A stretch of DNA of 64,000 nt from assembly GCA_022013695.1 (NCBI GenBank), contig JAKLPS010000022.1:3809-67808 (forward strand), in the 5' to 3' direction. Positions 19,733 through 64,000 of this stretch are shown here, piece by piece. How positions within the stretch are numbered: the stretch's first letter is position 1; every line of letters begins with the position of its first letter. The notes under the pieces were generated by a model. It was not told where the DNA came from, made no database searches, and saw only the letters and a list, made by a program, of their open reading frames with translations. Source of the stretch: Weeksellaceae bacterium (GTDB taxonomy: Bacteria > Bacteroidota > Bacteroidia > Flavobacteriales > Weeksellaceae). Made by a program: the position numbers and the translations under genes.

Positions 19733-19734
19733 AA

Positions 19735-19753
19735 GCGATCCGGACGGGACTTG
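19735..19753 (-). other. tRNA 3-prime-end fragment (T-loop/T-stem/acceptor), probable ICE attachment-site repeat
   Basis: The minus strand reads CAAGTCCCGTCCGGATCGC, which parses as T-loop end, T-stem CCCGT, 7-nt acceptor strand and discriminator. It resembles the tRNA-Asp-type TTCGAGTCCCGTCCG end. No D-arm or anticodon arm lies upstream, so it is only a fragment. Confidence 0.5.
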
Positions 19754-19769
19754 TTATTTTTTCAAAAAA

Positions 19770-20265
19770 GCCCTATCCATAAGCTTTATATTGTTCTCTT
19801 GTTTAATAGGTCACCGAATAGGTCACTTTTATAAAACAATGTAGAGAGCGTCGTTTTTACTGGTGCAAATATAGGTCATTTTTAATAATTTCCAAATAAT
19901 GGGTACATTTTTTTCGTATATGTTATGCAATCACCAGATAATCAACTATTTTAATTAGTTCCCCATCTGCTGCACATTAGACGAGGTAGAAATAATCCTT
20001 TATTTTCTAGCATTCAAAACATTGTTCGCTGAAATAATGATGACCACCATCTTGTTTATTCTGCCTTTACAATTTTCTAAAATAGCAAGTCCATTGCGGT
20101 CAGTGGAGCATAATATCCAAGAGTACGCAATCATAATGGAACGTTTCTATCGTCTCTATTTCTTCACTGAAAGTGAGTGCAAATTCACAGATTAATTTCT
20201 CCAAAAGATATTCTGCAATACTTTTTTGCTAATTCTGTCTCGTCTTCAATAATAAAGATTTTCAT
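19770..20265 (-). pseudogene. decayed OmpR/PhoB-type response regulator
   Basis: From the ATG at 20263-20265 the frame reads MKIFIIEDETELAKSIAEYLLEKLICEFALTFSEEIETIETFHYDCVLLDIMLH then stops. A shifted frame continues with DRNGLAILENCKGRINKMVVIIISANNVLNARK then stops. Further shifted fragments follow. The 3-prime end is missing where it abuts the tRNA fragment. Confidence 0.7.
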
Positions 20266-31500: not shown

Positions 31501-33721
31501 ATGCTTCAATCTGTTCTTTGGTAATTTCAGAACTGTTTTGTAATGAAGTATTGACAATTTTATCCTGTTTGGAGAATTGATATTTTAAAACACCTTTTTT
31601 GAGTTCAGGTTTTGACTGAATTTTATACTCATTCTGATTTTTTGTATTGTGAATAGAAATTATCCTATCACTTTTTTCAATCAATTCTTTTAATTTTTCA
31701 TCAGAAAACGATGTCGGCTTTGTGATTAGATCTTCGCGCAGTTTTTCATACTTGCTAATTTCGGTCGAAATTGTGGGAGATTTAAACTTAATGTCATTGA
31801 GTTTGGAAAGTACTTGGTCAATTTTTTCTTGAGCTTCTGTTAAATTGAGTTCATTTTTATTTTTGTTTTTGTTTTCAATCCTCGCAGGATCTTCAATTTC
31901 TGCAATCCCTTTTTTAGATTCAGGAACTTTATTTTCAACTTTAGCTTCTTCCTCTAAAAACAAATCTTCAAACAGATTTCCGATCCGCTGGGTTTCTTTC
32001 CTGTTTTTAAAATGTTCAATCTTAAATAAAGCTTCATCTAAATTACCGTGAATATATTTTTCTAATCGACCAAAACGGTTAGTTTTCTCTTGGGTTTCTC
32101 CCAAAATTCTTGTTGGATTATTTTCAAAATAATTGGAAATATCCTTTGAAATATTTTTATTATTTTTTCTTAGAATGATAATATCGGTTCCGATCTGTGT
32201 TCCTGCAAAAGCTCCGTTGGGCAAACGAAAACCTTCCAAAATATTGGCGTTTTGCAATTTTTTTTGCCTGCTCAGCCAAGATGATGGCAGTACCATCGCT
32301 AAAACGCCGTCTGATTTTAAAGAATCCAAAGACCGCTTAACGAAGTAATCTTCGTATTTAGGAATTTTGTGTTCTTCTCCCAATCCTTTGTAAAGTCCCC
32401 GATGTTCACCATAGGGAGGATTACCAATGACCAAATCATATCTTTCTGAAAAATCTTTTGAGTCTTTTTTATTACCTCTGTCATCAATAAATTCAGTTTC
32501 AAACGAACGAAGATTGATGTCAGCGTCGGGATGCAGAATCTTTGCAATTTTTGCGGTGATGTCGTTGATTTCAAATCCTGTAATTTTAGAATTTACAGAT
32601 AATTCGTGAGTAGCATAAATGAAATTTCCTGTTCCGACACTGGGTTCTAAAACCGAAATTTCTTTTTGAGTTTTGAAATGGTCTTTTATTAAATTACGAA
32701 CCGAATCTACAATTTTATCCTGCGTATAATATTCATCTAAAATCCCTCGTCCTTCTTTTGCGGTTCCTCCACTTTGGAATTGGTTGCAGATTTCTTTTAA
32801 ATCATCAGTGATGTTAAGATTTTCCTTTAAAAAGATTTTGTGGTCGTCAGAAATAAAACAAGCTGCGGAAACCACTTCTGCAACTTGTTCATTATTCAGT
32901 TTTTGCCCTTTATATTTTGAAATAAGAGCATCTAACTCTACATTATTTGTTGAATTCTCACTTACCTCGGAAAGTCCTCCATCGGTTCTTCTTCTATCGG
33001 ATACAGTTCTCCCGGGTACGATTCCGCCCACGGAACGTCCTTGAGTCTCTCCAACATTATTCTGTTGTGAGTCGTCATAGGATCCTCTTCCTCTGTCCCG
33101 GTTTCCCAAATTGCTCCGCTCTGTGCCTGCAAGTCCATTTCCAGCATTGTTGCTGCCCACTGCTTGTCCGCTTCCGTAACTTCCGTTTTGCTCGGATTGG
33201 ATTTTAGGGCTAAGTTCTCCAGTGTTGTGTTCAGGTGTTCCGTTTCCCACTTGCTGAGAATCGGATATTCTTCCGGATTCAATTGCATTGCTTTCATTTT
33301 CAGAAATTTTTGGTTCAACTAAATTAGTATTTTTATCTTGAAGATTAAGTTTACTCTCTAAATATTCGGTCAGGTCTTGATTCCCATTTTCAGAAATTTC
33401 ATACAACGGACGAACGTCTTTGATATTTTTGCCATTAAATTCTGTAAGAATTTTCCTAGTTATTGCATTTCCTGTTCTGTCCCCGCTCAGACATAGAAAC
33501 ATTTTGCCATCATAATTCTGGTATCTATTGAGGAACTTTTTGCTATTTGAACCTGAATTAAGGGTTATCAGTGTTCTATTATTGACTTTCTTGTTCAATT
33601 GAAGAAGCTCCAAGAATGAAAGCATATCCTTACTGTTTGTGAAAACAATAAGTTCCTTTTTATTTCCTTCAACTACAGAAATGTCATCATTTATCTCATT
33701 AAAAAAATCTTCATCTTTCAC
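28508..33721 (-). CDS. polyvalent protein: Toprim-like N-terminus, low-complexity linker, N6-adenine DNA methyltransferase, SNF2/DEAD-like helicase, coiled-coil tail
   Basis: 1737 aa. MTase motif I is VLEPSVGTGNF and motif IV is VIGNPPYG (nt 32411-32422). Helicase motifs are HEVGFGKTLSG, LTYDEVHNANH, LLSATPFTNKP and QVEGRAWRQGN. Confidence 0.85.
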   Translation of the reverse strand: MKDEDFFNEINDDISVVEGNKKELIVFTNSKDMLSFLELLQLNKKVNNRTLITLNSGSNSKKFLNRYQNYDGKMFLCLSGDRTGNAITRKILTEFNGKNIKDVRPLYEISENGNQDLTEYLESKLNLQDKNTNLVEPKISENESNAIESGRISDSQQVGNGTPEHNTGELSPKIQSEQNGSYGSGQAVGSNNAGNGLAGTERSNLGNRDRGRGSYDDSQQNNVGETQGRSVGGIVPGRTVSDRRRTDGGLSEVSENSTNNVELDALISKYKGQKLNNEQVAEVVSAACFISDDHKIFLKENLNITDDLKEICNQFQSGGTAKEGRGILDEYYTQDKIVDSVRNLIKDHFKTQKEISVLEPSVGTGNFIYATHELSVNSKITGFEINDITAKIAKILHPDADINLRSFETEFIDDRGNKKDSKDFSERYDLVIGNPPYGEHRGLYKGLGEEHKIPKYEDYFVKRSLDSLKSDGVLAMVLPSSWLSRQKKLQNANILEGFRLPNGAFAGTQIGTDIIILRKNNKNISKDISNYFENNPTRILGETQEKTNRFGRLEKYIHGNLDEALFKIEHFKNRKETQRIGNLFEDLFLEEEAKVENKVPESKKGIAEIEDPARIENKNKNKNELNLTEAQEKIDQVLSKLNDIKFKSPTISTEISKYEKLREDLITKPTSFSDEKLKELIEKSDRIISIHNTKNQNEYKIQSKPELKKGVLKYQFSKQDKIVNTSLQNSSEITKEQIEAFRDTSYDGTLNNRGKHYQFANYIDGKWVHDFYYTEGTIYAKLEQLERDFSDKNAVGGTENQYEKQKALLENVLPKAKSLDEIYISPNHEFVHKFELGQTEKDQYNHITKRTESVIVDYNLAEKFKDFVGTLSSEAFAGSSAWEVRSFVDNETVTGSDKERNALVRERRKAAAKDLFYKFVREELSDDIRNRFVKEFNRNYNNIYVPDYSKFPLFSRIYLHFKGQELRLTEVQKAGIGRQTTKGVGLLAHEVGFGKTLSGTLSMHEAMERGNAKRPIIVVPNDSILKQWVETIFETIPNAKVNVLGNLGKDYDLSKFDNKDGEITIVTYEGFNNIGFSSEITQELSSKFSYISTSEMKGVTNTERDIQIDLQKEKEIEGKMKRGKIYDWEDFGFDHLTYDEVHNANHIVGKVKIEDRRFASDFRSQNQQTSKLGINTWMAAQYIQDKNDGRNVTLLSATPFTNKPLEYYSILSLIANKRLEESGYFNVNTFFETFMEADNDMEIDAKGDVKFKANVRRFKNNSLFQQLLSEFIDIKGEEDNPELIRPNKINKEYKIEQNDLTKEQYDLLNENFSETEKGAILTHILNARLIAISPYLSTYYDDEEPSVKEFIENSPKLKQTMDLIRQNKKDIPESGQIIYSELAVAQFSKLKEYLITEIGYKPEEIGIITGANNKNQRIAIQNDFNEGKIKVVIGSEAIQEGMNLQENTTDIYMLTLPYNFTSLRQVEGRAWRQGNKNENVRINFMLTNDSIDVFMLQKLQSKQARYLEAMKKGADVLDISDISTQELKTSIITNPETRADIEIELMKKRIESEKNKHLADSAFVLRKYEDVLKVQELVTKAEHSYNRIEGYSKNGDGNSEYWATQLPSYQKTIDLHKTQVQEVIENLAQKGIDVSQIEHQTKSTEDKIAELDKKLAELPEMKENLVTLYKIEKAQMLKANEKRDYVREREDENRTLFSVLIKANSTNDFKTKNSFGVTINEIEDANLKDLSTVIRKR

Positions 33722-47052: not shown

Positions 47053-47706
47053 TTAAAAATTCCTTTTATACCGATCCATAATATCCTCAACAATCGCTTT
47101 GTCTGTATTGATGTAGCCTGCAAATGGATTGATGGAATTCCAGAATCCCAATCGGTTTGCTTTCTCCAATCTTAATTTGATGGCCAAAAGCCACAACTTC
47201 AGATTTTTGACATTACCGGAAATATTATGAAGGATTTTGTAGCGGTCTCCTGCAGTAGCCAGATTCAACTCTCCGGATGCGAGAATATCAGATACATCGG
47301 TCACGATCTTTAGACTTTGCTCGTAGGTTTTTTGGGAAGCTTTCACCCCAAAAATTGCGTATTGCGGATGTGCTGATGCTAATTGTCCTACTTGTGCTGA
47401 GTAATTGTAACACTTATTGAGTTCCGAGTAGATCTCCTGCACCTGAATACCATTTTGCAGTGTCCCGGAAACTTCTTTTAAGCCCTTCAGAATTTTATTC
47501 TGAATATCGTTAGCTGCAACCATCTGGGTTCCGACCCATGTCTGGGCATCTTTTAGTTTTGAAGTTTCTTCGATGACCTCATTCTGTTTGGCTTTTAGAT
47601 TTTCAGAATATAGAATCATTGCTGCCGTTACCGTAGGATCGATGTAGGTGTTTTGAGCACACAATAAACTTCCAAATCCTAAAAATAGAATGCTAAACTT
47701 TTTCAT
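47053..47706 (-). CDS. secreted coiled-coil protein (TraI/DUF4141-like?), family member 1
   Basis: 217 aa with a signal peptide, ending in YINTDKAIVEDIMDRYKRNF. Confidence 0.6.
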   Translation of the reverse strand: MKKFSILFLGFGSLLCAQNTYIDPTVTAAMILYSENLKAKQNEVIEETSKLKDAQTWVGTQMVAANDIQNKILKGLKEVSGTLQNGIQVQEIYSELNKCYNYSAQVGQLASAHPQYAIFGVKASQKTYEQSLKIVTDVSDILASGELNLATAGDRYKILHNISGNVKNLKLWLLAIKLRLEKANRLGFWNSINPFAGYINTDKAIVEDIMDRYKRNF

Positions 47707-49513
47707 ATTGTTTTTTATTTATTAATTCTGAAAAACTGATATTTCGGTCTTCTAATTCCTGTGAGATGGTCTTGAAGACATTCTTCCCTTTATGTTCTTT
47801 TTTCATCATTCCGTAAAAGGAATTGATTTTTTGATCCAGTGGATTTTGATATAAATTCACGAGCGATACAAGATTTTCGAGACTGTCTCCGAAGATTTTC
47901 AAATCACCAACTATTCTGCGCAATGCTTCATCATAATTGCCATATTTCTGAACATAGTATTCAACGGCTGACTTTTCCGGTTTTTCTGTGGTATAAGTCA
48001 AATATTGTTCAAGCGAAACTTCATTTCCGTACACTTCTCCTTTTGAACCTCGTTTCAGATAAAACTCCTTGAACCGACTTCGCCCGAATTTATTATTCAG
48101 ATTGTTGATGGTAAAAATCTTGTTTTGCTCTACTTTATTGAGTGAAAGCAATGAAGCGATCTTGTCAAAGTTGTCTTTGAACTTCGTCTGGTCAAGCAAT
48201 ATAAAAGTGTCCGAGTTATTTATTATACTGTCTTTTACGACTGCATTCCCGATAATATCATCCAGTTCCTGAGTAACAACTACCGCTTCTCCCCAAAATT
48301 TCCGTACTGTTTTATATAAATAAAGAATATAACCTCCCATTAATTTACTCGCAATGGCTTTCCACGCTTCTTCTATGATGAGAGCTTTTCTGCGGTCTTT
48401 TCTAAGGCGCATTTTCTGAATAAAAGTGTCCATTATAATCAACGTCACTATTGGAAACAGCTTCGGATTGTCCTTTACGTTATCGATCTCAAAAACAATG
48501 AAAGATTCGTCAAACAGTTTATTATCTGCACTTTCGTTTAAAGTCGTTCCGTACCTTCCGCCTTTGTAAAAATCTTTCAGCACAAATAAAAAGGTGCGCA
48601 GATTGAATTCCTTCTCTATAATGTTGTGTTTTTTATTACTCAGGTAAATAGGAAGAAATTGATCGCAATAATCATAAAACCCATTGAACGAAAGTTCTGT
48701 TACAACCAGCTTTTCTTCCAGTTCTTTTATTTTTCTGATAATGACTTTTCTAAAGGATTCATTCAATTCTTCTGCTGATCTGGATTGCCTGATGATGTCA
48801 TTAGATTTCATTAAAGTCAGCTGCGTCTCATTGTATATTTTCCTTCTTTCTTCATCGTTCAGCGTGTCGTACGCTTCATAGACTTGATAGAAATTGTCAC
48901 TTTCATAATCCGGATTATTGATGTTTTTATCAGGATGATAAAATTTTAATAATTTTCTTCCGGCTTCCTTGATTTCATTAGAACTGGCATCGAATGTAAT
49001 CCCCAGAATGTCATAATAGTTTTGATGTCCTTTGGCTTCATTCTCATATTCTGTGAATAGATCTTCTTCTTGAATGTTATATTTATTGAGATATAAAATA
49101 AGTTCTTCCGAAGTTTTATTTTGATACCACTCTTGTCCTGAGTTAAAATACTGATGATAATACGACATCAACACATTGTCTAATATGGACTTTTGTGCTG
49201 ATGACATTGAAGAGTCAGGACCTTGCCAAATCAGGAAGATCAGGTTGGTTAAAAATTCGATTTTTTCGATATTGAACTCTTTCTTATCCATCAGAAAAGG
49301 ATTCATTGTGATCGGTTTTTCTTCGGTGTACTGAATGTATCTTCCTCCTTTGTATTTACAAGTTCCTGAATAAGAATCTCCTGTATCAACAATGACTACA
49401 TCATAATTGTAGGTCAGATACTGCTCGATGATATTATTCATTAAAAAACTCTTGCCTGACCCACTGGGTCCTAAAACAAACTTATTCCTGTTGTTTATTC
49501 TTCCTGTTTTCAT
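47693..49513 (-). CDS. traG: TraG (VirB4-type conjugation ATPase), C-terminal part, carrying an inserted J-domain
   Basis: GRINNRNKFVLGPSGSGKSF is the Walker A motif and ALIIEEAWKA is Walker B-like. The insert NYYDILGI...KFYHPDKN...EAYDTLNDEERRKIYNE lies at 48827-49021. The 32 codons upstream (49514-49606) are in frame and look like coding sequence. Confidence 0.85.
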   Translation of the reverse strand: MKTGRINNRNKFVLGPSGSGKSFLMNNIIEQYLTYNYDVVIVDTGDSYSGTCKYKGGRYIQYTEEKPITMNPFLMDKKEFNIEKIEFLTNLIFLIWQGPDSSMSSAQKSILDNVLMSYYHQYFNSGQEWYQNKTSEELILYLNKYNIQEEDLFTEYENEAKGHQNYYDILGITFDASSNEIKEAGRKLLKFYHPDKNINNPDYESDNFYQVYEAYDTLNDEERRKIYNETQLTLMKSNDIIRQSRSAEELNESFRKVIIRKIKELEEKLVVTELSFNGFYDYCDQFLPIYLSNKKHNIIEKEFNLRTFLFVLKDFYKGGRYGTTLNESADNKLFDESFIVFEIDNVKDNPKLFPIVTLIIMDTFIQKMRLRKDRRKALIIEEAWKAIASKLMGGYILYLYKTVRKFWGEAVVVTQELDDIIGNAVVKDSIINNSDTFILLDQTKFKDNFDKIASLLSLNKVEQNKIFTINNLNNKFGRSRFKEFYLKRGSKGEVYGNEVSLEQYLTYTTEKPEKSAVEYYVQKYGNYDEALRRIVGDLKIFGDSLENLVSLVNLYQNPLDQKINSFYGMMKKEHKGKNVFKTISQELEDRNISFSELINKKQYEKV

Positions 49514-49606
49514 CGGTAAATCCGAAGGATCTACTTTTAGCGGAACACCCTGTCTGTCTGTAAATCTCAGGTAGAAATTGGATTCTTCATTGACCGGGTA
49601 ACTTTC

Positions 49607-50758
49607 TTAAAAAAAAAAACACAAGGCCGCTTCGCTTGTCGTCATAAATAGATCGTATTCCCTAAGTTCTGTTCCATTGCCCGGAATGGCTGATCGCCAG
49701 AGTTCTAACTGGTTGTAGGCATTTTTAGAAACAATAATTCCTTTCGTGAAAAGCTTGTTTTCAATCATCGACTGGATATTTTCCATTTTCTCCAATGTGT
49801 GTGCTGAAAAAAGGATGGAAAAATGAGCATTGACGACGAGCTGTCCATCGGTTGCAATGTTATGAAGCAGGGTCTGAATTTCATCTGCTATAATCGCGTT
49901 GGACGGAGAATTGTTCGCCGCGCCTTCGTGTTTTTTCTTTTTTTTATCAAGCTCCCTTTGCTGTTGTGCCTGAAGGGGAATGGTAATGATCTGATTGTAG
50001 ACAATGGTCTCGTAGTCTTCCAGTTCATTGATGAAACTAAAATTGTCAACCGCCGTCTCAGCTGCAGCTCCGTTACCTCCTAAAACTGAGTAAGGCTCAA
50101 TTTCTGAAGGCAGATCAATGTTTTCTACGTCAACATAGGCAATGTTTTTCACAAACCTATTTCCGATCTGCAAAAATTCGTTGGTGCTTTTTATATTATC
50201 AAAAGTTGGAGTTTCTGTAAACTGCATCGACAGAACTCCCGAAATGTAGTAATCAAAATCTTTCTCAAATAAAAACTCAGGTTCACAATTATTCTGTTTC
50301 AAAAGCATCAATACTTTCTGGCACTTATCCCGTAGTTCCTTATAACTTTTATCCGAAAAATGATAATGCTTAGTTTTCTTTTTCAGTTTGTCATCGATAA
50401 TATCCGTGAAGAATAGCACGGTTTCGATGGTTTTAAAAAGCCTGCCCTCAAAATGTTCTGAATATTTTTGCTGTAGAAACTGATTGGACTGTTCTGCGGT
50501 GTATCTTTTTTTAGAAAAAATGTCGAGCTTCTGGACAATTCTTCCTTCACCAATAATCGAGACTACCTGATTTAAGACCGTATGAAAATGGAGGTACGTA
50601 TCCGGATCTGCTGAATACTGCTCTACAATATTTTTTATCCTAATACCAATAATAGGATTTCCATACTGTCCGAAAAGAACATCGAAATCCCAATTGAAAT
50701 CTTTTGCATAATCATACCCGATAAAAGGGATGTTAAATGCTTGTTTTTCCTTTTTCAT
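49607..50758 (-). CDS. traG: TraG (VirB4-type conjugation ATPase), N-terminal part, ended by an in-frame TAA
   Basis: 383 aa ending in ...TSEAALCFFF then stop. The stop at 49607-49609 is in the same frame as the downstream ATPase ORF. Confidence 0.8.
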   Translation of the reverse strand: MKKEKQAFNIPFIGYDYAKDFNWDFDVLFGQYGNPIIGIRIKNIVEQYSADPDTYLHFHTVLNQVVSIIGEGRIVQKLDIFSKKRYTAEQSNQFLQQKYSEHFEGRLFKTIETVLFFTDIIDDKLKKKTKHYHFSDKSYKELRDKCQKVLMLLKQNNCEPEFLFEKDFDYYISGVLSMQFTETPTFDNIKSTNEFLQIGNRFVKNIAYVDVENIDLPSEIEPYSVLGGNGAAAETAVDNFSFINELEDYETIVYNQIITIPLQAQQQRELDKKKKKHEGAANNSPSNAIIADEIQTLLHNIATDGQLVVNAHFSILFSAHTLEKMENIQSMIENKLFTKGIIVSKNAYNQLELWRSAIPGNGTELREYDLFMTTSEAALCFFF

Positions 50759-52167: not shown

Positions 52168-52851
52168 CTAATCTTTGGCTTTTTCCTTCTTTTTCAGAAT
52201 TTCTATTTTGATCTTTGAGTTTTCATTGATATGCTTTAAAAGTTCATCGAGTGTATTTTCTACGGCATATTTTTGCTTGCCAGCCAGGTTTCTGGTATTA
52301 ATAGTTTGCAGGATGTTTCTCTTGAATACTGGACTTGGCAGCAGCATTCCATATTTTGCCAGCTCAATGTCCATTGCTTCCTGATTTAGGTATTTGTATC
52401 CTTTATCATATTTGGAACGGATAAATATTCTTTCGGCCTCGCTTTCCAATAATCCCAGCATATTGATAAAAACCAACGTTGATTTTACAGATACATCGGA
52501 ATATTCAAATGGGATCACGATAAAATCGCTGTATATCAATAAGTCGCTGTATTTAGCATCAAGTGTTCCTGCCAGATCAAAGAGATTGATCTCCTCGCTT
52601 TCTTTCAGATCAATAAGAGTATCAAAGTCCGAAAAAGACTGCCCATCATCTTCACCAATAATCTCAACATCGTACAATTTTGGAATTTCCAACACTTCAT
52701 CTTCTTTCCATTTGTAGTAAAAGGATTTCTGATAATCAAAATCAAACACATTGATTTTTCTTTCGGAATTAGTGGAAATATAATTGGCTAAAGCAATCGC
52801 CAATGTTGTTTTTCCGGTTCCTCCTTTTTGGGTGGCAAAAGTGATGATCAT
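52168..52851 (-). CDS. ParA/MinD-like ATPase (TraA position)
   Basis: 227 aa with the deviant Walker A motif TQKGGTGKTT. Confidence 0.8.
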   Translation of the reverse strand: MIITFATQKGGTGKTTLAIALANYISTNSERKINVFDFDYQKSFYYKWKEDEVLEIPKLYDVEIIGEDDGQSFSDFDTLIDLKESEEINLFDLAGTLDAKYSDLLIYSDFIVIPFEYSDVSVKSTLVFINMLGLLESEAERIFIRSKYDKGYKYLNQEAMDIELAKYGMLLPSPVFKRNILQTINTRNLAGKQKYAVENTLDELLKHINENSKIKIEILKKKEKAKD

Positions 52852-52920: not shown

Positions 52921-54414
52921 TTAACGCCTCTTCTTCCTTCGTTTCTTGAGTTCGTTTTCAGCAGGGTCTTTTGCCGTTCCTGAACTTTTCATCCATTCAA
53001 ATAGCATTTCGTTGACGGCTTTGTTTAATTCTGTTTTTTTATTATTTTCAGTCCGGTTTTCTGTCTGCACTTCATTTATGCCTATGGGATTTAGAAATTT
53101 TTGATATTCCTTTTCTCCGATTAATGGTTGAAGTTCACCCACGTAATGGAATCTGGTATGAACAGCATACAGCTTTCCGTCTTCAGCAGTCGTTATAGAA
53201 ATATCTTTTTTTTCATCATTTGTGTTTTTGTTATTTCTAATAAAATCCTTTACTTCAAACTGGACTTTTCGGTAGGTTTCCAAATCTTTCTTCCCTCGGT
53301 TTTCAAAAAGCATAAAGTCCTTAATCTCTGCTTCCGGATATTGCTTTTTCAAAAACTCCAGCAGTATTTCTCTTGATTCCTGATTTGGAATGTTATAATC
53401 TTTTAAGATTTCGAAAAGCTTTTTATCCAAAGTTTCGGAAGTGAATTCAAATAATTCATTCATTTTCAAAATCTCACTCCCTTTGTAGACGATTCCTGTT
53501 TTATGGTCTATCAACGTGTAACCAAAAGGTTTTAAACCTTCTTTTTGATGAAATACAATGTCGATTCCGAAAACATCTTTCAACTTTTTCTGAAGCTCAC
53601 TTTCAAATTCAATTTTTGATTTTGAAAGATTTTCTCTGTCAGCTATCTTTTCTTGTGGTAACATTGATTGACTTCGCCTATTGTCTTCCACTTTGAAAAC
53701 TTTGTTGGAATACAGTTCCTTATATTTATTCAGAATGGCTTTAATCTGTCTGGCTCTGCTGTCACTTTTACTATTGTCGAAAACAATTTGATTCCCTGAA
53801 AGTGTTCGCTGTATGACTCCGTTTTTTAAAATGCTATAAAAATTTTCATCATTTGTGTTTCTGTTTATTTTATAACCATTTCTATGGAGCAAAGTTTCCA
53901 ACTGACTGAACGAACTTATTTTGTAATTTAGAAGTTTGTCCAATTCTGCTTCTGGACTCTGGCCGTACAATTTTCCCATTGTATTACTTAATGCCTTTTG
54001 AGCATTAAGCCTCTCGTAACTGTCATCGATCTTCTTTCCGGATTGCTTATCAACCCTTGTGGAAACAATGTGGACGTGATTATTATCTGTGTCCTTATGA
54101 AATACAACAATGAAAGGTTGTGTCCCGTATCCCATTTCATTCATAAAACCTTCTGCAACATTTTTCAGTTCTTCTTTGCTGTGCTCCTGAAACTTGGTTG
54201 AAATGACTGAGTGAAATTGGGGTTTCTTTACTTTTTCGTTTTTTGAAATTGATTTTAAATAATCCCGAACCTCCTTCTGACTACTGGCTTCATTGATGAA
54301 CGAAGGAAAATTTTTCATCAGCATCAATTCCCCAGTTCCTTTATTCACTTTTTTATCGTTGTAATTGACTCCCGAAAAGCTGGAACTCGCCGGTTTCATT
54401 ATTTTAACGATCAT
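52921..54414 (-). CDS. relaxase/mobilization nuclease
   Basis: 497 aa. FHKDTDNNHVHIVSTRVD is the HxDxxxxHxH relaxase histidine triad. Confidence 0.85.
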   Translation of the reverse strand: MIVKIMKPASSSFSGVNYNDKKVNKGTGELMLMKNFPSFINEASSQKEVRDYLKSISKNEKVKKPQFHSVISTKFQEHSKEELKNVAEGFMNEMGYGTQPFIVVFHKDTDNNHVHIVSTRVDKQSGKKIDDSYERLNAQKALSNTMGKLYGQSPEAELDKLLNYKISSFSQLETLLHRNGYKINRNTNDENFYSILKNGVIQRTLSGNQIVFDNSKSDSRARQIKAILNKYKELYSNKVFKVEDNRRSQSMLPQEKIADRENLSKSKIEFESELQKKLKDVFGIDIVFHQKEGLKPFGYTLIDHKTGIVYKGSEILKMNELFEFTSETLDKKLFEILKDYNIPNQESREILLEFLKKQYPEAEIKDFMLFENRGKKDLETYRKVQFEVKDFIRNNKNTNDEKKDISITTAEDGKLYAVHTRFHYVGELQPLIGEKEYQKFLNPIGINEVQTENRTENNKKTELNKAVNEMLFEWMKSSGTAKDPAENELKKRRKKRR

Positions 54415-54770
54415 TGTCCGAGCATAGAATATATTTTAATAAAAATGTCATTCTGCTTTATCTTCAAATCAGCTATTTCAGATAACTTGTTAGAAAAATC
54501 TTGCAGGTCTGCTGCGCTGATAAATTTTTTAGCATTTGCAATTTTTGCGATCTGATTGATGTTGGTTTCTATTTTCACGAATAGATTATCTTGTTTTTCA
54601 ATGAACGCTAATACTATTCTCCTCTCATCATCCAAAATCCTGTTTTCTACAGAATTGATAATTAGACTTGTCATAGAGATTTTCTTTTCTGAACATATCT
54701 TCCTCCAGTATTTCTTTTTTTGATTGTTGATCCTGATAACTATAATCCCGTCTTTTTCATCGGTTTCCAT
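54411..54770 (-). CDS. MobC-like relaxosome accessory protein
   Basis: 119 aa, small, overlapping the relaxase start by 4 nt. It has an RHH-like N-terminus. Confidence 0.55.
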   Translation of the reverse strand: METDEKDGIIVIRINNQKKKYWRKICSEKKISMTSLIINSVENRILDDERRIVLAFIEKQDNLFVKIETNINQIAKIANAKKFISAADLQDFSNKLSEIADLKIKQNDIFIKIYSMLGQ

Positions 54771-57197: not shown

Positions 57198-57366
57198 TAG
57201 TATTTTGATTAAAAATTCTGTGACAAAATTGGGCGTTAAAACCTTCTAAAACAATAGTATTCAAGGGGTTTGGGCTAAATAAGAATAATCTGGATTAGTC
57301 TGGAAACTTCCGAAGATTAAAAAAGAATAATCTGGATTAATTTGGATTCTTCAAAATATTAATCGT

Positions 57367-57380
57367 AATATTGCAATATT
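57367..57380. promoter_or_regulatory. perfect 14-bp palindrome upstream of arsR (candidate ArsR operator)
   Basis: AATATTGCAATATT is its own reverse complement and ends 12 nt before the arsR ATG. A related GCAATATTGC lies at 57742-57751. Confidence 0.45.
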
Positions 57381-57391
57381 AAATATTGATA

Positions 57392-57718
57392 ATGGGAGCA
57401 ACTAAGACCGAACATTTTACAGATAAGCAAAATCAAATTGCAATAATTGCAAAAGCATTGGGGCATCCTGCGCGAATAGCGATTATTGAGTATTTGATGA
57501 AAGTTAATGAGTGTATTTGTGGTGACATCGTGAATGAATTACCGTTAGCTCAACCCACCGTCTCTCAGCATTTGAAAGAACTGAAAAATGCAGGGATTAT
57601 AAAAGGTAACATTTCCGGAAACGCTATCTGCTATTGTATAGACGAAAAGACTATCGAAATTCTAAACACTTATTTTTCCGCAATAGTACAAACTGTTACC
57701 AAAGTAAAATGCTGTTAA
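57392..57718 (+). CDS. arsR: ArsR/SmtB-family metalloregulator
   Basis: ALGHPARIAIIEYLMKVNECICGDIVNELPLAQPTVSQHLKELKNAGII contains the wHTH and the CxC metal site. I prefer the ATG at 57392 over the TTG at 57386. Confidence 0.85.
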   Translation: MGATKTEHFTDKQNQIAIIAKALGHPARIAIIEYLMKVNECICGDIVNELPLAQPTVSQHLKELKNAGIIKGNISGNAICYCIDEKTIEILNTYFSAIVQTVTKVKCC

Positions 57719-57774
57719 GCATTTTTTTACTCGTATTTATCGCAATATTGCATTTAGACTATAAAGAATTTATT

Positions 57775-58248
57775 ATGAAATTATCAGAAGTAAAACAAAT
57801 TTTGCCAACATTGGAAAATGTTGAATTTCAATTAGAAAATGGAACTTATGTTCCAGAACATTTTCACGTTACAGAGGTGGGAATGATTACCAAAAACTTT
57901 ATTGATTGTGGCGGTGTCATCCGTTCAGAGAAGGTTGTGAACTTTCAGCTTTGGAATGCAGATGATTTTGAACATCGTTTGAAGCCTAACAAATTGCTCA
58001 ACATTATCAAACTTTCTGAAGATAAATTAGGAATCGAAGATTTTGATATTGAAGTTGAATATCAAAGTGAGACAATCGGTAAATATGATTTAGAATTTAA
58101 CGGGAAAACATTTATTCTAAAAAATAAGACTACAGCTTGTTTAGCTCAGGACGCTTGTGGAATTCCTACGGAAAAAGAAAAGAAAAACTTATCCGAACTT
58201 AATGTAAATCAAAACAATTCTTGCACACCAGGTGGCGGATGTTGCTAA
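57775..58248 (+). CDS. DUF6428-like protein with Cys-rich C-terminus
   Basis: The internal ATG at 57775 gives MKLSEVKQILPTLENVEFQLENGTYVPEHFHVTEVG... and the protein ends in NSCTPGGGCC. Confidence 0.6.
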   Translation: MKLSEVKQILPTLENVEFQLENGTYVPEHFHVTEVGMITKNFIDCGGVIRSEKVVNFQLWNADDFEHRLKPNKLLNIIKLSEDKLGIEDFDIEVEYQSETIGKYDLEFNGKTFILKNKTTACLAQDACGIPTEKEKKNLSELNVNQNNSCTPGGGCC

Positions 58249-58258
58249 TTAAATTGCT

Positions 58259-58750
58259 ATGGAAATAAAGCCGATTACCAAAGATAATTTTTCAGAGTTG
58301 TTAGAAATCTATGGTCAGGGATTAGCTACTAATATTGCCACTTTTCAAAATGACTTGCCAATATGGCAAGAGTGGGATAAAGGACACCTTAATTTCTGCA
58401 GAATCAGTATATATGAAAATAACGAAATGCTTGGTTGGACTGCATTATCTCCTGTCTCCAGCAGATGTGTTTATTCAGGCGTAGCAGAAGTCAGTGTTTA
58501 TGTAGCAACAGATGCAAGAGGAAAAGGTGTTGGTAAAATATTGCTGAATGAATTGATTGAGCAGAGTGAGTCAAATGAAATATGGACATTACAATCCGGG
58601 ATATTTTCAGAAAACCAAGGCAGTATAAAACTACACGAGAGATGTGGTTTTAGAATCGTTGGCTACAGGGAAAAAATTGGAAAGAAGAATGGGGTTTGGA
58701 AGGACAATATATTGATGGAGTACAGAAGTAAGATTGTCGGAATAGATTAA
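58259..58750 (+). CDS. GNAT N-acetyltransferase (PAT/ArsN1-like)
   Basis: 163 aa with DARGKGVGKILL (acetyl-CoA motif), located in the ars operon. Confidence 0.7.
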   Translation: MEIKPITKDNFSELLEIYGQGLATNIATFQNDLPIWQEWDKGHLNFCRISIYENNEMLGWTALSPVSSRCVYSGVAEVSVYVATDARGKGVGKILLNELIEQSESNEIWTLQSGIFSENQGSIKLHERCGFRIVGYREKIGKKNGVWKDNILMEYRSKIVGID

Positions 58751-58777
58751 AAATAAAAATTATAAAATCAATAAAAA

Positions 58778-59551
58778 ATGAAAATTGCATTATTCAGCGA
58801 CATTCACGCTAATCTCCCTGCATTAGAAGCATTCTTTGCAGATGTTGAAAAAAGAAATCCCGACAGCATTTATTGTTTGGGAGATTTAGTTGGTTACAAT
58901 ATTTGGCCAAACGAAGTGGTCAATGAAATCCGTAAAAGAAAAATACCAACTATTGCTGGCAACTACGATTTTGGCATTGGGAGAATGAGTAATGAATGCG
59001 GTTGCGCCTACAAAACAGACGCTGAGAAGGACAACGGAAACATTTCCATTTCTTTTACTAATTCGTTGATGAAAGATGACGAACGTGCTTACCTGCGTAC
59101 CCTTCCAGCACATATAAAAGTAGAATTTCAATTGAATGAAGACAAGCTAAACCTGCTTTTGGTACACGGGAGTCCCAGAAAAATAAATGAATATCTTTTC
59201 GAAGACCGTGAAGAAAAAAGTATGCTCCGTATTATGGAACAGGCTGACGCTGACATTATGTGTTTCGGACATACCCACAAGCCTTATCACAGAGTTTTAA
59301 ATTCGGGTATTGATGGACAGGATCATTTTCGTCACGCCGTAAATATCGGTTCGGTTGGGAAGCCGAAAGACAATGATATCAGAGGTGGTTATGTGATGTT
59401 GACAGTTGATGAAAACAGTTCTGTCTTGAACAAAGAAAGCATCAGTGTAGAATTTATCCGTTTTGACTATGACTTTGAAAAGGCAGCAAAGGCAGTGGAA
59501 GACAGCCCTCTTCCAAACGAGTATGCAGAAAATCTAAGACGTGGCTATTAA
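58778..59551 (+). CDS. metallophosphoesterase (calcineurin-like)
   Basis: 257 aa with FSDIHAN, GDLVGYN, GNYD and GHTHKP motifs. Confidence 0.85.
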   Translation: MKIALFSDIHANLPALEAFFADVEKRNPDSIYCLGDLVGYNIWPNEVVNEIRKRKIPTIAGNYDFGIGRMSNECGCAYKTDAEKDNGNISISFTNSLMKDDERAYLRTLPAHIKVEFQLNEDKLNLLLVHGSPRKINEYLFEDREEKSMLRIMEQADADIMCFGHTHKPYHRVLNSGIDGQDHFRHAVNIGSVGKPKDNDIRGGYVMLTVDENSSVLNKESISVEFIRFDYDFEKAAKAVEDSPLPNEYAENLRRGY

Positions 59552-59569
59552 TCTTCAAAAATCTAAAAA

Positions 59570-59947
59570 ATGGAACTTTTAAAAGATTTATATTATTCTA
59601 AAGAACATACTTGGGTTCGTATTGAGAACAAAATTGCAACTGTCGGTATTACACCATTTGCTCAAAAGGAATTGGGAGAAATCGTATATGTTGACTTACC
59701 GAATGTTAATCATAACTTCAAACAAGACGAAGTATTTGGTTCTGTAGAAGCCATTAAAACTGTCAGCGACCTATTTATGCCTCTTTCAGGGAAAATAATT
59801 GAAACCAATGAGCAACTTTTAAAAGAGCCAACGCTTGTAAATTCTAATCCATTTGATAATGGCTGGATGGTGAAAATTGAAATTGAAGACCTAAGAGAAA
59901 CTGAAAATTTATTAACAGCGGAACAATACGCTCAACTACATAATTAG
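59570..59947 (+). CDS. glycine-cleavage H-protein-like lipoyl carrier
   Basis: 125 aa. YSKEHTWVR...ATVGITPFAQKELGEIVYVDLP...FGSVEAIKTVSDLFMPLSGKIIE retains the lipoyl-lysine position (EAIK). Confidence 0.8.
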   Translation: MELLKDLYYSKEHTWVRIENKIATVGITPFAQKELGEIVYVDLPNVNHNFKQDEVFGSVEAIKTVSDLFMPLSGKIIETNEQLLKEPTLVNSNPFDNGWMVKIEIEDLRETENLLTAEQYAQLHN

Positions 59948-59950
59948 AAG

Positions 59951-60982
59951 ATGCAACCAAAATTAAAATTCCTCGACCGCTTTCTTACCCTATGGATTTT
60001 TTTAGCAATGCTTTTGGGCGTTGGGTTAGGATATTTCTTTCCTAATATTTCTACTGTCACAAATTCTTTGTCTGTCGGAACAACTAATATTCCCCTAGCA
60101 ATAGGCTTAATTTTAATGATGTATCCGCCTTTGGCAAAAGTGGATTATACTCTATTACCAATGGCTTTTAAAGACAAAAAAGTAATGTCGGTATCATTAC
60201 TACTCAATTGGATTATCAGCCCTATTTTAATGTTTGTATTAGCTATCATTTTTCTAAGAGATGAGCCAGACTATATGATTGGTCTAATTTTGATCGGTCT
60301 TGCAAGATGTATTGCAATGGTAATTGTCTGGAACGATTTAGCAAAAGGTAATCGGGAGTACGCCGCTCTGCTAATCGCATTAAACAGTATTTTCCAATTG
60401 GTATTTTATAGTTTTTATGTTTGGCTTTTCATAAATGTACTACCACAAAAACTAGGATTAGGAAATTTTAACGTTGCTGTACCAATGAAAGATGTTGCCG
60501 AGAGTGTATTCATTTATTTAGGAATCCCATTTATTGCAGGATTTGTGAGCCGTTACTTCTTGATTAAATTAAAAGGAAAAGAGTGGTTCAATAGAAAATT
60601 CATTCCAGCTATTTCACCTATTACTTTGTATGCTTTGCTGTTTACCATAGTATTGATGTTCAGTTTGAAGGGAGACAAAATTTTAGAGTTACCAATGGAC
60701 GTTGTTAAAGTTGCCATTCCATTAGTAATATACTTTGTTCTTACATTCTTCATCAGCTTTTTCATTAGTAAGGCATTGAAAGTACCTTACGACAAAAATG
60801 CATCGATTGCATTTACAGCCACTGGAAATAATTTCGAATTAGCTATTGCCGTAGCTATAGCAGTTTTTGGAATCCATTCTTCACAAGCATTTGTTGGGGT
60901 CATTGGCCCTCTTGTGGAAGTGCCTGTTTTGATTTTATTGGTCAGGGTTAGTTTATGGTTAAAAAGAAAATACTATTCTTAA
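59951..60982 (+). CDS. acr3: ACR3-family arsenite efflux permease
   Basis: 343 aa and polytopic, with [11 protein letters not shown] (conserved Cys) and the [10 protein letters not shown] segment. Confidence 0.9.
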
Positions 60983-61296
60983 ACAAAATATTACCTGAAA
61001 CTCTAAAAAACAAGTTCCGCAGTTTTTTCCCCTTTTTGCAAAAAAGGCAAGATCGTCTTTGGATATCAAACTTAAAAAGTTTGTATATACAAAGACACAT
61101 CTTGCTCAAAAAAGCCTCTTATTTTTCGGAGTTCTGAAAAATAATTTATAGTATTGATAATCAGTAAGTTTTATTCTTTTATTGTTTTTATTGGGAAAGT
61201 ATAGAAGTGAAGCCTTTAAGTATGAAAGAAAAATACTAATTGCTTGTAAAGTGAGAATTTAGCTATAGTATTGTAAATCAAATTGTAATGATTTTC

Positions 61297-61731
61297 ACCT
61301 GTACTTATTTTACGCAGGTGACCTGTATCTAATGTACGCAGGTATAGGATTGCACCTATATTGATATTACGCAGGTTTGATGATTGACATTATCCTATTT
61401 TATACAAATGACCTGCACCTGATTTACGCAGGTATAGGATTGCACCTGTATTGATATTACGTAGGTTTGAAGATTGATATTGTCCTATTTTATATAGATG
61501 ACCTGTACCTAAGTTACGCACGTATGAACTCCAGCTGTAGGTATTTTACGCAGGTTTCATGATTGGCAAAATCTTTTTTATGCAGGTAACCTGTATCTGA
61601 TTTACGCAGGTATGAACTCCAGCTGCATGTATTTTACGCAGGTTTCATGATTGGCAAAATCCCTTTTATGCAGGTAACCTGTATCTGATTTACGCAGGTA
61701 TGAATTCCACCTGTATTCGTATTACGCACGT
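61297..61731. repeat. array of eleven 23-bp dyad sites (ACCTG-N13-CAGGT, right half TTACGCAGGT) in about five tandem 88-90-bp units
   Basis: Site starts are 61297, 61321, 61354, 61411, 61444, 61501, 61533, 61589, 61621, 61677 and 61709. Sites occur in pairs 32-33 bp apart, and the pairs recur every 88-90 bp. Extra half-sites tatgcaggt lie at 61579-61587 and 61667-61675. Confidence 0.9.
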
Positions 61732-61912
61732 ATGAAGTCTAGCTTTATATATTTTTTCGCATATTCGTTAAGTTGCATTGCCCTATAACGAACATGAATA
61801 ATTTATTGCACAACGACTATAACCTACTCGGAAAGAAAGCCAATTGCCATAAAAGGCATAAAAAAAGAGATTAATTTCAGCAATGCGAAAAGATTGTATT
61901 TTGAGAAAGGTT

Positions 61913-62584
61913 TTAATTTACAATAACCCATAAATGGGTCAAATCAACATCACCATTTTCCCTATGAGCGGTAGATCCTAAATAGCTAAAATCTGCATTA
62001 GATTCTAATTCCGATAAAAATTCATCATTTTTCCAATTCTTGTCAGTTTGTGCCAATTCCTTAATCCACTGGTTTATTGTAGTCATCCAATGGTTAGAAT
62101 TTTCCTTTTCTACAAAACCTAGCAAACCACATTCATTTATACCTTTGCCGTGTTTTTCAGTTTTATACCTCTCTATTCCCCCATTATTATTATCACCGAT
62201 AACATATTCTTTTTCTCTTGATTTTTCAGGAGAAGGCAAGCGTTTACTTTCTACCGAAAAAAGAGATGAAGTTGAAACATTTTGTTCATTTGGATAAAAA
62301 TAAAAATCTGAAAAACCTTTGCTTAAATTTGTAATATCCCGGTATTGTCCATTAATATTAAATGGATAATCGTATTTTCTTATTAGGATTTGAGCTTGCT
62401 CGATATATATTTGTGTAAAATCGTCTTCATTCAATTTTCTCTTTTGGTAGAAATCAGAAACTACATATGACTTGAAATGTGGTACAACAGACTTCATCAG
62501 TTTACTAATAAGTAAAATAATATTAGTATTTGGAATACTAATCTGAGGATTGGATTTATTATATAAATTTTCCTCTGCTATCAT
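61913..62584 (-). CDS. hypothetical protein, possible PD-(D/E)xK nuclease
   Basis: 223 aa. SDFYFYPNE...SLFSVESKRL fits a D...ExK pattern. It overlaps the upstream methyltransferase-like ORF by 4 nt. Confidence 0.4.
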   Translation of the reverse strand: MIAEENLYNKSNPQISIPNTNIILLISKLMKSVVPHFKSYVVSDFYQKRKLNEDDFTQIYIEQAQILIRKYDYPFNINGQYRDITNLSKGFSDFYFYPNEQNVSTSSLFSVESKRLPSPEKSREKEYVIGDNNNGGIERYKTEKHGKGINECGLLGFVEKENSNHWMTTINQWIKELAQTDKNWKNDEFLSELESNADFSYLGSTAHRENGDVDLTHLWVIVN

Positions 62585-64000
62585 TCTTTTGTCAAATTTG
62601 AAAGGTCAGAGAAACATTTATCCGCATCACGATATGCTGTTGAAGAAAGCCAGTACCTGTATTGATTAGGTTTCACAAAAACAACAGTATCTTTTTGAGG
62701 ATATAATTTTATTATTCTATTTACGGAGAGATGTGCAGAAATTTCGTTATTTGTAAGTCCTTCAATATTTAGTGCAGAAAAGTCTTTACTGAAATTCGGT
62801 TCTGTATTTTCGTTGTCGTACTTGAAGACAGTTGCAATTAATGAGTTTTCAAGTTGAATAACATCAGACAATCTGAATTTACGATTATTATCTTCATAGA
62901 TTGTATTTAATGCTCGTGAAAATTCAGTTCCATAATTACCTATAATTTTTTTAATATTTTCATCTCCTCTAATTTTGCTTATAGCTTTTGAATTTTCACC
63001 GCGTCTAAGAAAATCCTGCGTATAGTTATTGACATCATTTATTGTATTGATATCAAATGAAGATAAAGGAAAATCAAAAAAAGGCAAAAACATTAAATCT
63101 TTTTTCAATAATGCCGTATTAAGATTAATAAGCACCTGTCCGCTACAAGAAAAAATCAAAAATCTGAATAATTCGTTTTTATTATCGAATGTTTCCTTTA
63201 TTTGGTGTAGTACTTCTATTGATCCAGAAATGCCAATAATTTTATGTTGGAAAGAAAAATCATAGTTGTTTAGGTGAATTGGAATTTTTACCTGACCTGT
63301 ATTTTCTTTGATTAAAATATTAGGAGCTTTAAATATTAATTCGTTTGGAATTTTCTCAAATTTTTGATTTCTTGGAATATCCTTTAATGACTCTATAATT
63401 ATTTCATTTTCATTTATAGCTTCTGTTGGAAGAGTTTTTAACGAGTAAATAAATTCAGGATTCAAATTCCCATTTGAACCTATTTTAAAACCTTCTCCAA
63501 AAACACAATCGTTTTCCTTAAGAAATTCTTCGAAAGATTTACAATTATTTGCTTTCTCTACAAGATTTTTTATTCTTCCACCTCCGAGTAAGTTAATTTT
63601 CCAAATAAACTGATTATTAATAGCTGCTTGCCGGTTTACAAAATGTAAATCATAATCATCTATTTCGAAAACAATTCTTTCCTTGGTTGCCTTAGTCCTT
63701 CTAAATGTTAAGTGTAAAATATTTTTACTAAAATCTGGTTTTTCATTTTTGATAAATATAGCTGCCGAACCGACTCTTGCTCCATTATCCCACAGAGATT
63801 TACCTTCAGCTAAGGCAGTAAAATCTAAAATTTGAACTGCATTGTAGTTTGAAAACAAAACTTTCTTGTAATCATTGGAAGTACTATTATATAATAAGCC
63901 AGATGATTTAATGATCAAACAAACCAATCCTCTATCTTTTAAAAAACTAAATGATTCCGAAAGAAACTTTAAAGCAATTTGTCCTTGTGGAATTTTTGTT
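62581..64000 (-). CDS. C-terminal part of a large DNA methyltransferase-like protein (start beyond window)
   Basis: The frame stays open past the listed Met to the window end (...KIPQGQIALKFLSESFSFLKDRGLVCLIIKSSGLLYN...), which resembles the post-NPPY region of N6-MTases. A long specificity-like domain follows. Confidence 0.5.
   Translation of the reverse strand, partial: TKIPQGQIALKFLSESFSFLKDRGLVCLIIKSSGLLYNSTSNDYKKVLFSNYNAVQILDFTALAEGKSLWDNGARVGSAAIFIKNEKPDFSKNILHLTFRRTKATKERIVFEIDDYDLHFVNRQAAINNQFIWKINLLGGGRIKNLVEKANNCKSFEEFLKENDCVFGEGFKIGSNGNLNPEFIYSLKTLPTEAINENEIIIESLKDIPRNQKFEKIPNELIFKAPNILIKENTGQVKIPIHLNNYDFSFQHKIIGISGSIEVLHQIKETFDNKNELFRFLIFSCSGQVLINLNTALLKKDLMFLPFFDFPLSSFDINTINDVNNYTQDFLRRGENSKAISKIRGDENIKKIIGNYGTEFSRALNTIYEDNNRKFRLSDVIQLENSLIATVFKYDNENTEPNFSKDFSALNIEGLTNNEISAHLSVNRIIKLYPQKDTVVFVKPNQYRYWLSSTAYRDADKCFSDLSNLTKE

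Follow-up and report, generated by a model that had tools for sequence, protein, structure and literature searches.

We analysed a 64,000-nucleotide stretch of DNA from a Weeksellaceae bacterium (contig JAKLPS010000022.1, positions 3,809 to 67,808; hereafter the window) that carries an integrative and conjugative element (ICE), and found that a non-coding array of eleven 23-bp sites at 61297-61731 forms one unit with a hairpin leader on its left; how the two are ordered, oriented and spaced is fixed, both in ICEs and in a conjugative plasmid. We infer that the hairpin is the origin of transfer (oriT). The array may be a cis-acting accessory arm of oriT, a set of phased sites for a putative DNA-binding protein that is lineage-specific and sequence-specific (here called the reader), an interpretation that we prefer while giving it somewhat less than an even chance.

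Features of this general type (phased repeats beside oriT, iterons, centromeres) are known, and we found no description of either the array or the oriT in the literature on Elizabethkingia and Chryseobacterium ICEs and on Bacteroides conjugative transposons. What appears to be new is the way in which several features combine: quasi-dyad units of 23 bp repeat every three turns; their linkage to an invariant oriT hairpin is fixed in both ICEs and plasmids; motif class switches rapidly on near-identical backbones; and no binder gene is adjacent. Through ICEs and plasmids of this family, tet(X) and genes for arsenic, copper, and defence functions pass between Chryseobacterium, Elizabethkingia, Empedobacter, and related bacteria. 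For these elements the analysis yields a precise candidate oriT, in the form of a co-varying hairpin that contains an invariant 17-mer; beside it, a cis element that is conserved and yet hypervariable; and, flanking the oriT-array unit on either outer side, a hot spot for cargo. The 17-mer, ACAAAGACACATCTTGC, can serve as a practical marker for such elements, and for hitchers with an orphan oriT, in genomes; the identity of the reader would reveal how transfer, replication, or stability is controlled and could explain specificity between related elements.

The array and its hairpin leader

The array holds 11 matches to ACCTG-N13-CAGGT (at most one mismatch), all on the + strand, compared with a mean of 0.51 and a maximum of 3 per window in shuffled sequence; a whole-window scan found one further match, unrelated to the array. 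The right half of the unit, TTACGCAGGT (at most one mismatch), is present 13 times in the array against 2.1 expected per window, the two surplus half-sites being copies of TTATGCAGGT at 61578 and 61666. Full units start at 61297, 61321, 61354, 61411, 61444, 61501, 61533, 61589, 61621, 61677, and 61709; Tandem Repeats Finder reports a period of 88 bp in 4.8 copies (61306-61728), and repeat finding resolves two subfamilies, 90 bp x 2 (61306-61485) and 88 bp x 3 (61485-61748). An initial annotation of the window had described eleven sites with a strongly conserved right half, paired 32-33 bp apart within an 88-90-bp higher-order repeat and falling into two subfamilies, all of which we recover; only the starts it gave for subfamily units (61319, 61409, 61499, and 61588) are each off by 1-2 bases. 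It had also called the stretch non-coding, and we agree: the sole open reading frame (ORF) is 43 aa, the repeat periods are no multiple of three, and homologous arrays are likewise non-coding. The array lies between two convergent genes, ACR3 (the end of the ars operon, 60982) and a gene for a 223-aa protein ending at 61913. Rfam gave no match on the array at either gathering or permissive thresholds, and a scan for sigma-70 promoters and terminators stayed at background level.

The array and the sequence to its left are laid out as follows.

61005-61145, + strand: leader block, with three further small inverted repeats (61027-61050, 61119-61144)
61047-61105, + strand: long imperfect hairpin or cruciform, GCAAGAT...ATCTTGC, with a co-varying upper and an invariant lower stem (fold and 48-sequence alignment)
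61089-61105, + strand: invariant 17-mer ACAAAGACACATCTTGC, the right arm of the hairpin
61146-61296, + strand: AT-rich spacer (77% AT) between leader and array, holding GTAAATCA at 61273-61280
61297-61731, + strand: array of 11 full 23-bp units, consensus ACCTG-tatct-TTTTACGCAGGT, arranged as 90 bp x 2 plus 88 bp x 3
61578-61587 and 61666-61675: extra right half-sites; degenerate right half-sites lie near 61396-61409 and 61486-61499

Conservation extends over the 300 bp left of the array in every locus compared, and the leader core (about 61005-61145) is 80-95% identical across genera. All 36 Weeksellaceae loci have the exact 17-mer, as do two plasmids and about 50 metagenome loci that were retrieved by a relaxase profile and whose relaxases are 48-80% identical. 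Across the 48-sequence alignment 87% of hairpin cells are paired, compared with 29-53% when the partner strand is slid; 9 pairs show compensatory double changes, and none of 500 shuffles reached the observed score. In compact relatives the hairpin lies directly upstream of mobC and the relaxase gene, and an orphan copy is found on a 9.8-kb Empedobacter Rep/tet(X3) plasmid that has no relaxase. We read the hairpin as a probable oriT because of this covariation, the invariance of the 17-mer, its place upstream of mobC-relaxase, and the orphan copy on a plasmid without a relaxase. The 17-mer also contains ATCTTG|C, which resembles the VirD2/MOB_P-type nick consensus. The spacer between leader and array is 74-77% AT against 63% in the backbone, and its GTAAATCA, about 16 bp ahead of the first unit, recurs ahead of arrays whose motifs are of other classes.

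The small Empedobacter plasmid (pSE1-3-9kb, NZ_CP043635.1, our L191) in fact has two oriT-like leaders in opposite orientation, at about 6920-6986 and 3945-4002 of the record; one has the exact 17-mer with a single array unit, and the other has compensating changes in both hairpin arms (ACAAATCCACATCTTGC). The plasmid resembles a hitcher of these ICEs that supplies only an oriT.

When species-representative genomes were scanned for paired half-sites, about 38 loci in Weeksellaceae proved to have arrays, with 4-11 or more sites each, and the pairing of hairpin and array is seen in about 100 loci altogether, in ICEs and in a 70-kb conjugative plasmid. The hairpin of the window lies 204 bp from its array; distances from the 17-mer to the start of an array on its right lie between 112 and 231 bp in 36 of 36 Weeksellaceae loci and between 90 and 270 bp in the metagenome loci and the plasmid, always in the same orientation. 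A motif-agnostic count of phased units, covering 62 distinct loci to the right of the 17-mer and 57 on the left as a control, found at least 6 units in 40 of the 62 and in 1 of the 57. Copy number ranges from 4 to 19. The plasmid, the 70-kb Chryseobacterium p1, has the exact 17-mer followed by about 13 units of ACCTGGGGAAATTTTACCTACCCC at a 33-35-bp period. The window locus itself is also present in Chryseobacterium CP033917 and in several metagenome assemblies; one of these loci has 9 units instead of 11, and three short-read contigs break within the array.

In the genome collection, arrays occur only beside the hairpin leader, one or two per genome, and the motif is restricted to the array in the window, in the 20-kb loci examined, and in the 70-kb plasmid. 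The initial annotation is thus right in describing a non-coding array of phased sites, specific to the element, with iteron-like or centromere-like architecture, and the scatter through the genome that it had named as the mark of a generic repetitive extragenic palindromic (REP) element is not seen. A dispersed repeat of the REP or BIME type is ruled out by the restriction of arrays to the neighbourhood of the leader, as is a dispersed operator set by the confinement of every motif to its own array.

Matches of the motif scan outside the Weeksellaceae are coding or REP-like repeats, and unrelated. Three Pyrinomonadaceae metagenome-assembled genomes (L019, L088, and L097), for instance, have several arrays per genome of an unrelated repeat of about 33-35 bp (CCCACCCGCTTACGCAGGTGGTACTGACAAG) that shares the 10-mer TTACGCAGGT; this looks like a separate REP-like or other family. 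In L119/L120, between +300 and +560 from the 17-mer, a core like that of motif class A lies on the opposite strand (TGCGTAAAA), in pairs at irregular spacing, which suggests that the array there has been inverted or rearranged.

Motif classes and candidate readers

Within a unit it is sequence that is conserved, not pairing. The consensus of the window class, drawn from 193-228 unique units, keeps its right half strongly and its left arm weakly, and class A retains a specific core of 10-12 bp in 228 unique units from 38 arrays in several genera while neighbouring positions vary, a pattern that indicates sequence-specific selection. Variants in the left arm are compensated in the right arm in only 4 of 69, 2 of 98, 1 of 67, 0 of 26, and 1 of 60 cases, and single-unit hairpins are marginal as single-stranded DNA (-0.8 to -4.6 kcal/mol). 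Selection thus acts on a core of about 12 bp (TTTTACGCAGGT in the window lineage) and more weakly on the upstream ACCTG rather than on base-pairing, which points to protein binding and speaks against RNA or single-stranded DNA hairpins. A structured array of such hairpins (of the terminator, single-strand origin (sso), or Frpo type) is ruled out by the weak folds, the near absence of compensation, and the lack of an Rfam match. Spacings between units are most often 32 bp (81 cases) or 33 bp (40), followed by 24 bp (24) and 22-23 bp (14), and cluster across arrays at 32-33, 22-24, 57, and 65 bp; the units are placed two or three helical turns apart.

The motif itself is anything but constant. 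At least 10 motif classes have in common a 32-34-bp or 22-24-bp period, a single orientation, and a T-rich core; in distant relatives the same position is occupied by AACCTTGCATTATTTTTTACAGGTT, AACCTGTATCTCTTTTGAGCAGGTT, GGTAGTATYAAAATTAAGCTACC, GTAGGTATTATTTTATCCTAC, or GCTCAATTTTTGAGC, and at one locus a variant unit alternates with ACCCTGCACTATTTTACGCAGGT, of which there are 19 copies. L173, L181, and L175/L184 are 95-96% identical in nucleotide sequence over a 12.2-kb backbone running from type IV secretion system (T4SS) genes through ParA, relaxase, and MobC to 155 bp past the 17-mer, and despite this have arrays of different classes. The L173/L175/L181 group corresponds to contigs ODJO01000420.1, ODHS01004254.1, and ODWA01000007.1. 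The strands of the ribbon-helix-helix (RHH) protein MobC are identical across the L173/L181/L184 group, as are the ParG-like proteins. Since different arrays accompany proteins that are about 95% identical, MobC, the relaxase, the mob-linked ParA, and the ParG-like protein are not the motif-specific reader and do not determine the motif.

Individual candidates fare no better. MobC is excluded from both directions, as its DNA-facing strand positions vary under a constant motif and its RHH strand is identical under different motifs; the ParG-like protein is identical beneath different array classes; the 197-aa protein that follows ParA in elements of the window type is acidic and anchored by a transmembrane (TM) segment; a 69-aa ORF near ThiF looks spurious; and the right-hand neighbour genes were rejected as heterogeneous cargo.

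A possible accessory arm of oriT and the alternatives

How would an accessory arm work? In the scheme that we prefer, the + strand would be nicked at or near ATCTTG|C, in or beside ACAAAGACACATCTTG|C, and would leave rightwards, making the array the first DNA of the leading region. The reader would bind cooperatively along the array to form a wrapped or filament-like nucleoprotein complex beside the nick site (nic), and the complex could position the relaxosome or gate it (perhaps jointly with the ParA-like ATPase of the mob operon), or might act on the incoming leading end, much as StbA acts on the stbDRs of R388 and TraK acts in RP4 beside their respective oriTs. Leading regions have genes transcribed toward oriT (PMC11541004), and the genes for single-strand binding protein (SSB), primase, methyltransferase or restriction-modification (RM), toxin-antitoxin (TA), and umuDC functions on the array side are all transcribed toward the leader, which would match that geometry. 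A related idea, and an unlikely one in our estimation, is that the array marks the very beginning of the transferred strand as an "identity tag", or that it is a decoy or shield of the leading end against recipient defences. As a tag, its rapidly swappable, lineage-specific sites would be read by a cognate protein of the element, which would tell self from non-self among co-resident or incoming related elements, with oriT-level incompatibility, exclusion, or control of cross-mobilisation as possible outcomes; either role would explain why unrelated arrays are found on near-identical conjugation backbones.

Several observations weigh against an accessory arm. No binder was identified among the candidate proteins examined, and no StbA-like or TraK-like gene was found next to the array, where the first right-hand gene is heterogeneous cargo. 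Both the nick position and the polarity of transfer are inferences here, and a 32-34-bp period with 23-bp quasi-dyad units is unlike the 9-bp, 11-bp-period stbDRs. Loci with fewer than 6 phased units have short or degenerate arrays, about one-third of elements having 3-5 degenerate units, and the plasmid with the orphan oriT has just one unit, so that some functions, at least, can do without the array.

R388 (IncW), in which ten phased 9-bp repeats (stbDRs) beside oriT bind StbA and act with the ParA-like StbB (PMC3098194), is the closest documented analogue. As in R388 and in the homologous RP4 TraK region between nic and traK, phased direct repeats here lie beside the probable oriT on the side that would enter the recipient first; they would be cis-acting, are confined to a single main locus, and a ParA-like ATPase is linked to conjugative DNA processing (PMC3098194). 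The differences are that i) the stbDRs form 2 x 5 copies of 9 bp at an 11-bp period within the promoter of the binder's own gene, whereas here 4-19 copies of 23-bp units recur every 32-34 (or 22-24) bp with no adjacent binder gene; ii) the ParA-like gene is here in the relaxase operon, on the other side of oriT; and iii) no StbA or TraK homologue was detected. The overdrive of Agrobacterium Ti plasmids, with VirC1 and VirC2, is comparable in being a cis element beside a VirD2-type nick site in a system with a VirC1-like ParA ATPase and, in some relatives of our elements, an RHH partner. Overdrive, however, is one element, about 24 bp long, that lies on the side of the border which is not transferred; here the array is multi-copy and on the presumed leading side, and the RHH partner does not change from one motif class to another.

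Iteron origins (RK2, R6K, P1, F ori2, and the SGI1 oriV) resemble the array in having direct repeats of about 16-23 bp at integral turns, an AT-rich neighbour, and lineage-specific sequences, and the array could accordingly be a vegetative origin or copy-control locus in which a DnaD/Rep-like winged-helix protein binds the repeats, the spacer serves as the unwinding element, and the excised or plasmid form replicates; we consider this rather improbable. The 23-bp repeats are direct, spaced by two or three turns, and adjoin the 74-77% AT stretch; the family includes a 70-kb plasmid with no annotated rep gene; and SGI1 demonstrates that integrated elements can carry iteron origins (PMC7826253). 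A candidate initiator exists as well, a 250-aa protein with weak DnaD-like and replication-initiator PHROG matches encoded beside a Toprim primase and SSB; it is 38-48% identical between elements whose neighbouring genes are 63-80% identical, and its putative recognition region is kept in elements with class-A-type motifs and different in plasmid p1, which has another motif. Yet this covariation of Rep and array is a single contrasting case, and class-A-type motifs persist at just 38-48% Rep-like identity. Moreover, it is the oriT hairpin, and not a rep gene, to which the array is anchored; the Rep-like gene lies 4-15 kb away with cargo between, and L145, L173, L175, and L181 have no such gene on the array side before the element end. 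The region shows no enrichment of DnaA boxes, with 0.34 per kb where the backbone has 0.39 per kb, and 61005-61912 of the window contains none. No further Rep-like homologues were found in the fetched loci, and the homologues in databases are all from Weeksellaceae. In CP033917 (L188 5944-6696, beyond the right end of the window) the Rep-like gene diverges faster than those for the 376-aa protein, DUF3853, Toprim, and RteC, and so seems to be locally accelerated or exchanged within a conserved replication-like module.

The initial annotation had proposed a partition centromere resembling F sopC for the ParA-like ATPase of the ICE. Tandem units that each contain a short inverted repeat, one locus per replicon, do recall sopC and TP228 parH; each element has its phased repeats at one locus only, all relatives keep a small ParA, and in p1 and one clade ParA is followed by a 96-aa protein with a ParG-like C-terminal RHH domain. 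A centromere that segregates the excised or plasmid form through the mob-linked ParA and a binding partner nonetheless strikes us as very unlikely, and the specific proposal is unsupported, as the motif changes wholly in L173, L181, and L184 while ParA, relaxase, MobC, and the ParG-like protein remain about 95% identical. The array is tied to the oriT hairpin, its constant partner, which the initial annotation does not mention, rather than to parA or a parAB operon: in the window ParA is 8.4 kb away, in the mobC-relaxase operon. Elements of the window type have neither a ParB nor a ParG gene; as the initial annotation had remarked, no recognisable ParB is found beside ParA, the next gene there encoding the acidic membrane-anchored protein. 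Finally, plasmid p1 has a second parA with a repeat of its own, a near-perfect tandem repeat of 247 bp x 7.1 within a 2-kb gene-free stretch just upstream of that parA and its partner gene (NZ_CP139138.1 65183-66929; L194 15183-16929), which is likely to be the plasmid's own centromere or origin.

Binding of the array by an integrase or excisionase (recombination directionality factor), coupling excision to transfer, or a cluster of attachment (att) arm-type sites, seems to us the least plausible of these alternatives, even though the reported action of Tn916 Int at its oriT, and IntDOT, are precedents for such coupling (PMC3809561). Three array classes do go with three integration targets (tRNA-Met, tRNA-Ser, and tmRNA in L173, L175, and L181), the integrase stop codon abuts the array in L173 and L180, and the array is 60-90 bp from the att end in L175 and L181. 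These class differences can, however, be explained by linkage within a swapped end block, and the terminal repeats of L175 and L181 (TAGTCCCT) bear no relation to their array motifs. Neither the other element end nor the interval between integrase and tRNA contains the motif. In elements of the window type the array is more than 20 kb from the element end, and it is present on a plasmid with no annotated tyrosine integrase; an att-arm function for a tyrosine recombinase is ruled out by this occurrence on a plasmid together with the varying distance to the element end (60 bp in some elements, more than 20 kb in others).

Might there be no dedicated reader at all? Phased T-tracts could provide curved or wrappable DNA, or a feature of the incoming single strand, with drift and homogenisation by unequal exchange accounting for the changes in motif. 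In keeping with such a structural role, period, orientation, and T-rich core are conserved in all classes while the arms change, copy number is variable, higher-order repeats are present, and none of the candidates examined proved to be a reader. We think it no more probable than a centromere, in view of the class A core of 10-12 bp kept in so many arrays and genera, the instability of unit hairpins with their uncompensated arm changes, and the unrelated arrays on 95% identical backbones, which drift could not produce.

Gene neighbourhood, cargo, and element ends

The mob genes, the cargo on either side of the oriT-array unit, and the left end of the element are located in the window as follows.

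52168-52851, - strand: ParA/VirC1-like ATPase, 227 aa, in the mob operon (Pfam VirC1 match)
52921-54414, - strand: MobA/VirD2-type relaxase, 497 aa (Pfam PF03432)
54411-54770, - strand: MobC-like RHH relaxosome accessory protein, 119 aa (Pfam PF05713)
57364-60975, + strand: cassette of ars cargo (ArsR to ACR3), inserted between the leader and the region upstream of a 264-aa gene
61913-64000, - strand: right-side cargo; the gene for the 223-aa protein (61913-62584) overlaps the stop of an MmeI-type RM-methylase fusion (62581 to beyond the window)
19734-19753, - strand: fragment resembling a tRNA 3' end (reverse complement CAAGTCCCGTCCGGATCGCT), then three direct repeats AATAGGTCAC at about 19808-19880

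Pfam thus bears out the ParA-like gene of the initial annotation, and its R-M-like neighbour is indeed an MmeI-type enzyme (969 aa in L001) with a co-transcribed 223-aa partner. Relatives mostly share one arrangement: T4SS genes, TM-acidic protein, ParA-like ATPase, relaxase, MobC (lipoprotein and PTL genes), about 480 bp, and the array, to the right of which comes an ars operon, a PRTRC cassette, or an RM module. First genes to the right are heterogeneous cargo, including SIR2, OLD-family, AraC, HxlR, AlkB-like, LexA-like, RM, ars, and TA genes. In an ICE of the window type the array side runs through RM module, PRTRC, SSB, Toprim primase, and 376-aa protein to the 250-aa DnaD/Rep-like winged-helix protein, DUF3853, HTH_17, RteC, and a TPR-AraC protein.

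The initial annotation had also raised the possibility of a module boundary, and cargo has in fact been inserted at both outer sides of the leader-array unit. Most relatives have this left junction intact and their ars genes beyond the array. In L017, L027, and others, the sequences flanking the ars insertion of the window are contiguous, with an overlap of about 20 bp, and related ars cassettes lie to the right of the array in 12 species; from this precise insertion on the left and the cassettes on the right we conclude that both outer flanks are cargo hot spots. Between hairpin and array, cargo was never found in the loci compared. CP033917 has a 4.3-kb cargo block between ACR3 and the position equivalent to 60998 of the window; on the array side of this block it is 99.9% identical to the window and on the ars side 94%, which indicates that the array does not travel with the ars genes.

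Elements differ in how far the array lies from the element end, the extremes being about 60 bp and over 20 kb. L173 and L180 have the order tRNA-Met, integrase, array, with the integrase adjoining the array, L175 has tRNA-Ser, about 60 bp, and the array, and L181 has tmRNA, about 90 bp, and the array. Beyond the array, L175 and L181 have a conserved terminal segment in common, which places the array inside the element, in a more diverged, exchanged end block. At the other end of the ICE in the window, the tRNA-like fragment at 19734-19753 is probably the left attachment repeat, and the AATAGGTCAC repeats are probably arm-type sites of the integrase; motif scans found no array motif in this left end (19734-19880), and the window has no intact tRNA gene.

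Some further differences among these elements were seen along the way. L180 has a 3.6-kb insertion between MobC and the leader (-3761 to -144 from the 17-mer) with a 1205-aa ORF on the opposite strand, which the otherwise near-identical L173 lacks. The VirB4/TraG-type ATPase of the window (47693-50758, - strand) is present as two ORFs about 94 bp apart, of 383 aa (CagE_TrbE_VirB match) and 606 aa (TraG P-loop and DnaJ-domain match), where the plasmid relative has a single TraG of 1021 aa; the pair could reflect a split gene, a frameshift, or an insertion. The chromosomal part of the window contains a Flavo-1 RNA (Rfam RF01705, 70 bits; 552-658, - strand), which marks the host as one of the Flavobacteriia. 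A 1737-aa protein with Toprim-like, Eco57I-type methylase, and SNF2/helicase domains is encoded at 28508-33721 (- strand), and a large "helicase-related" gene akin to it is found on the plasmid relative.

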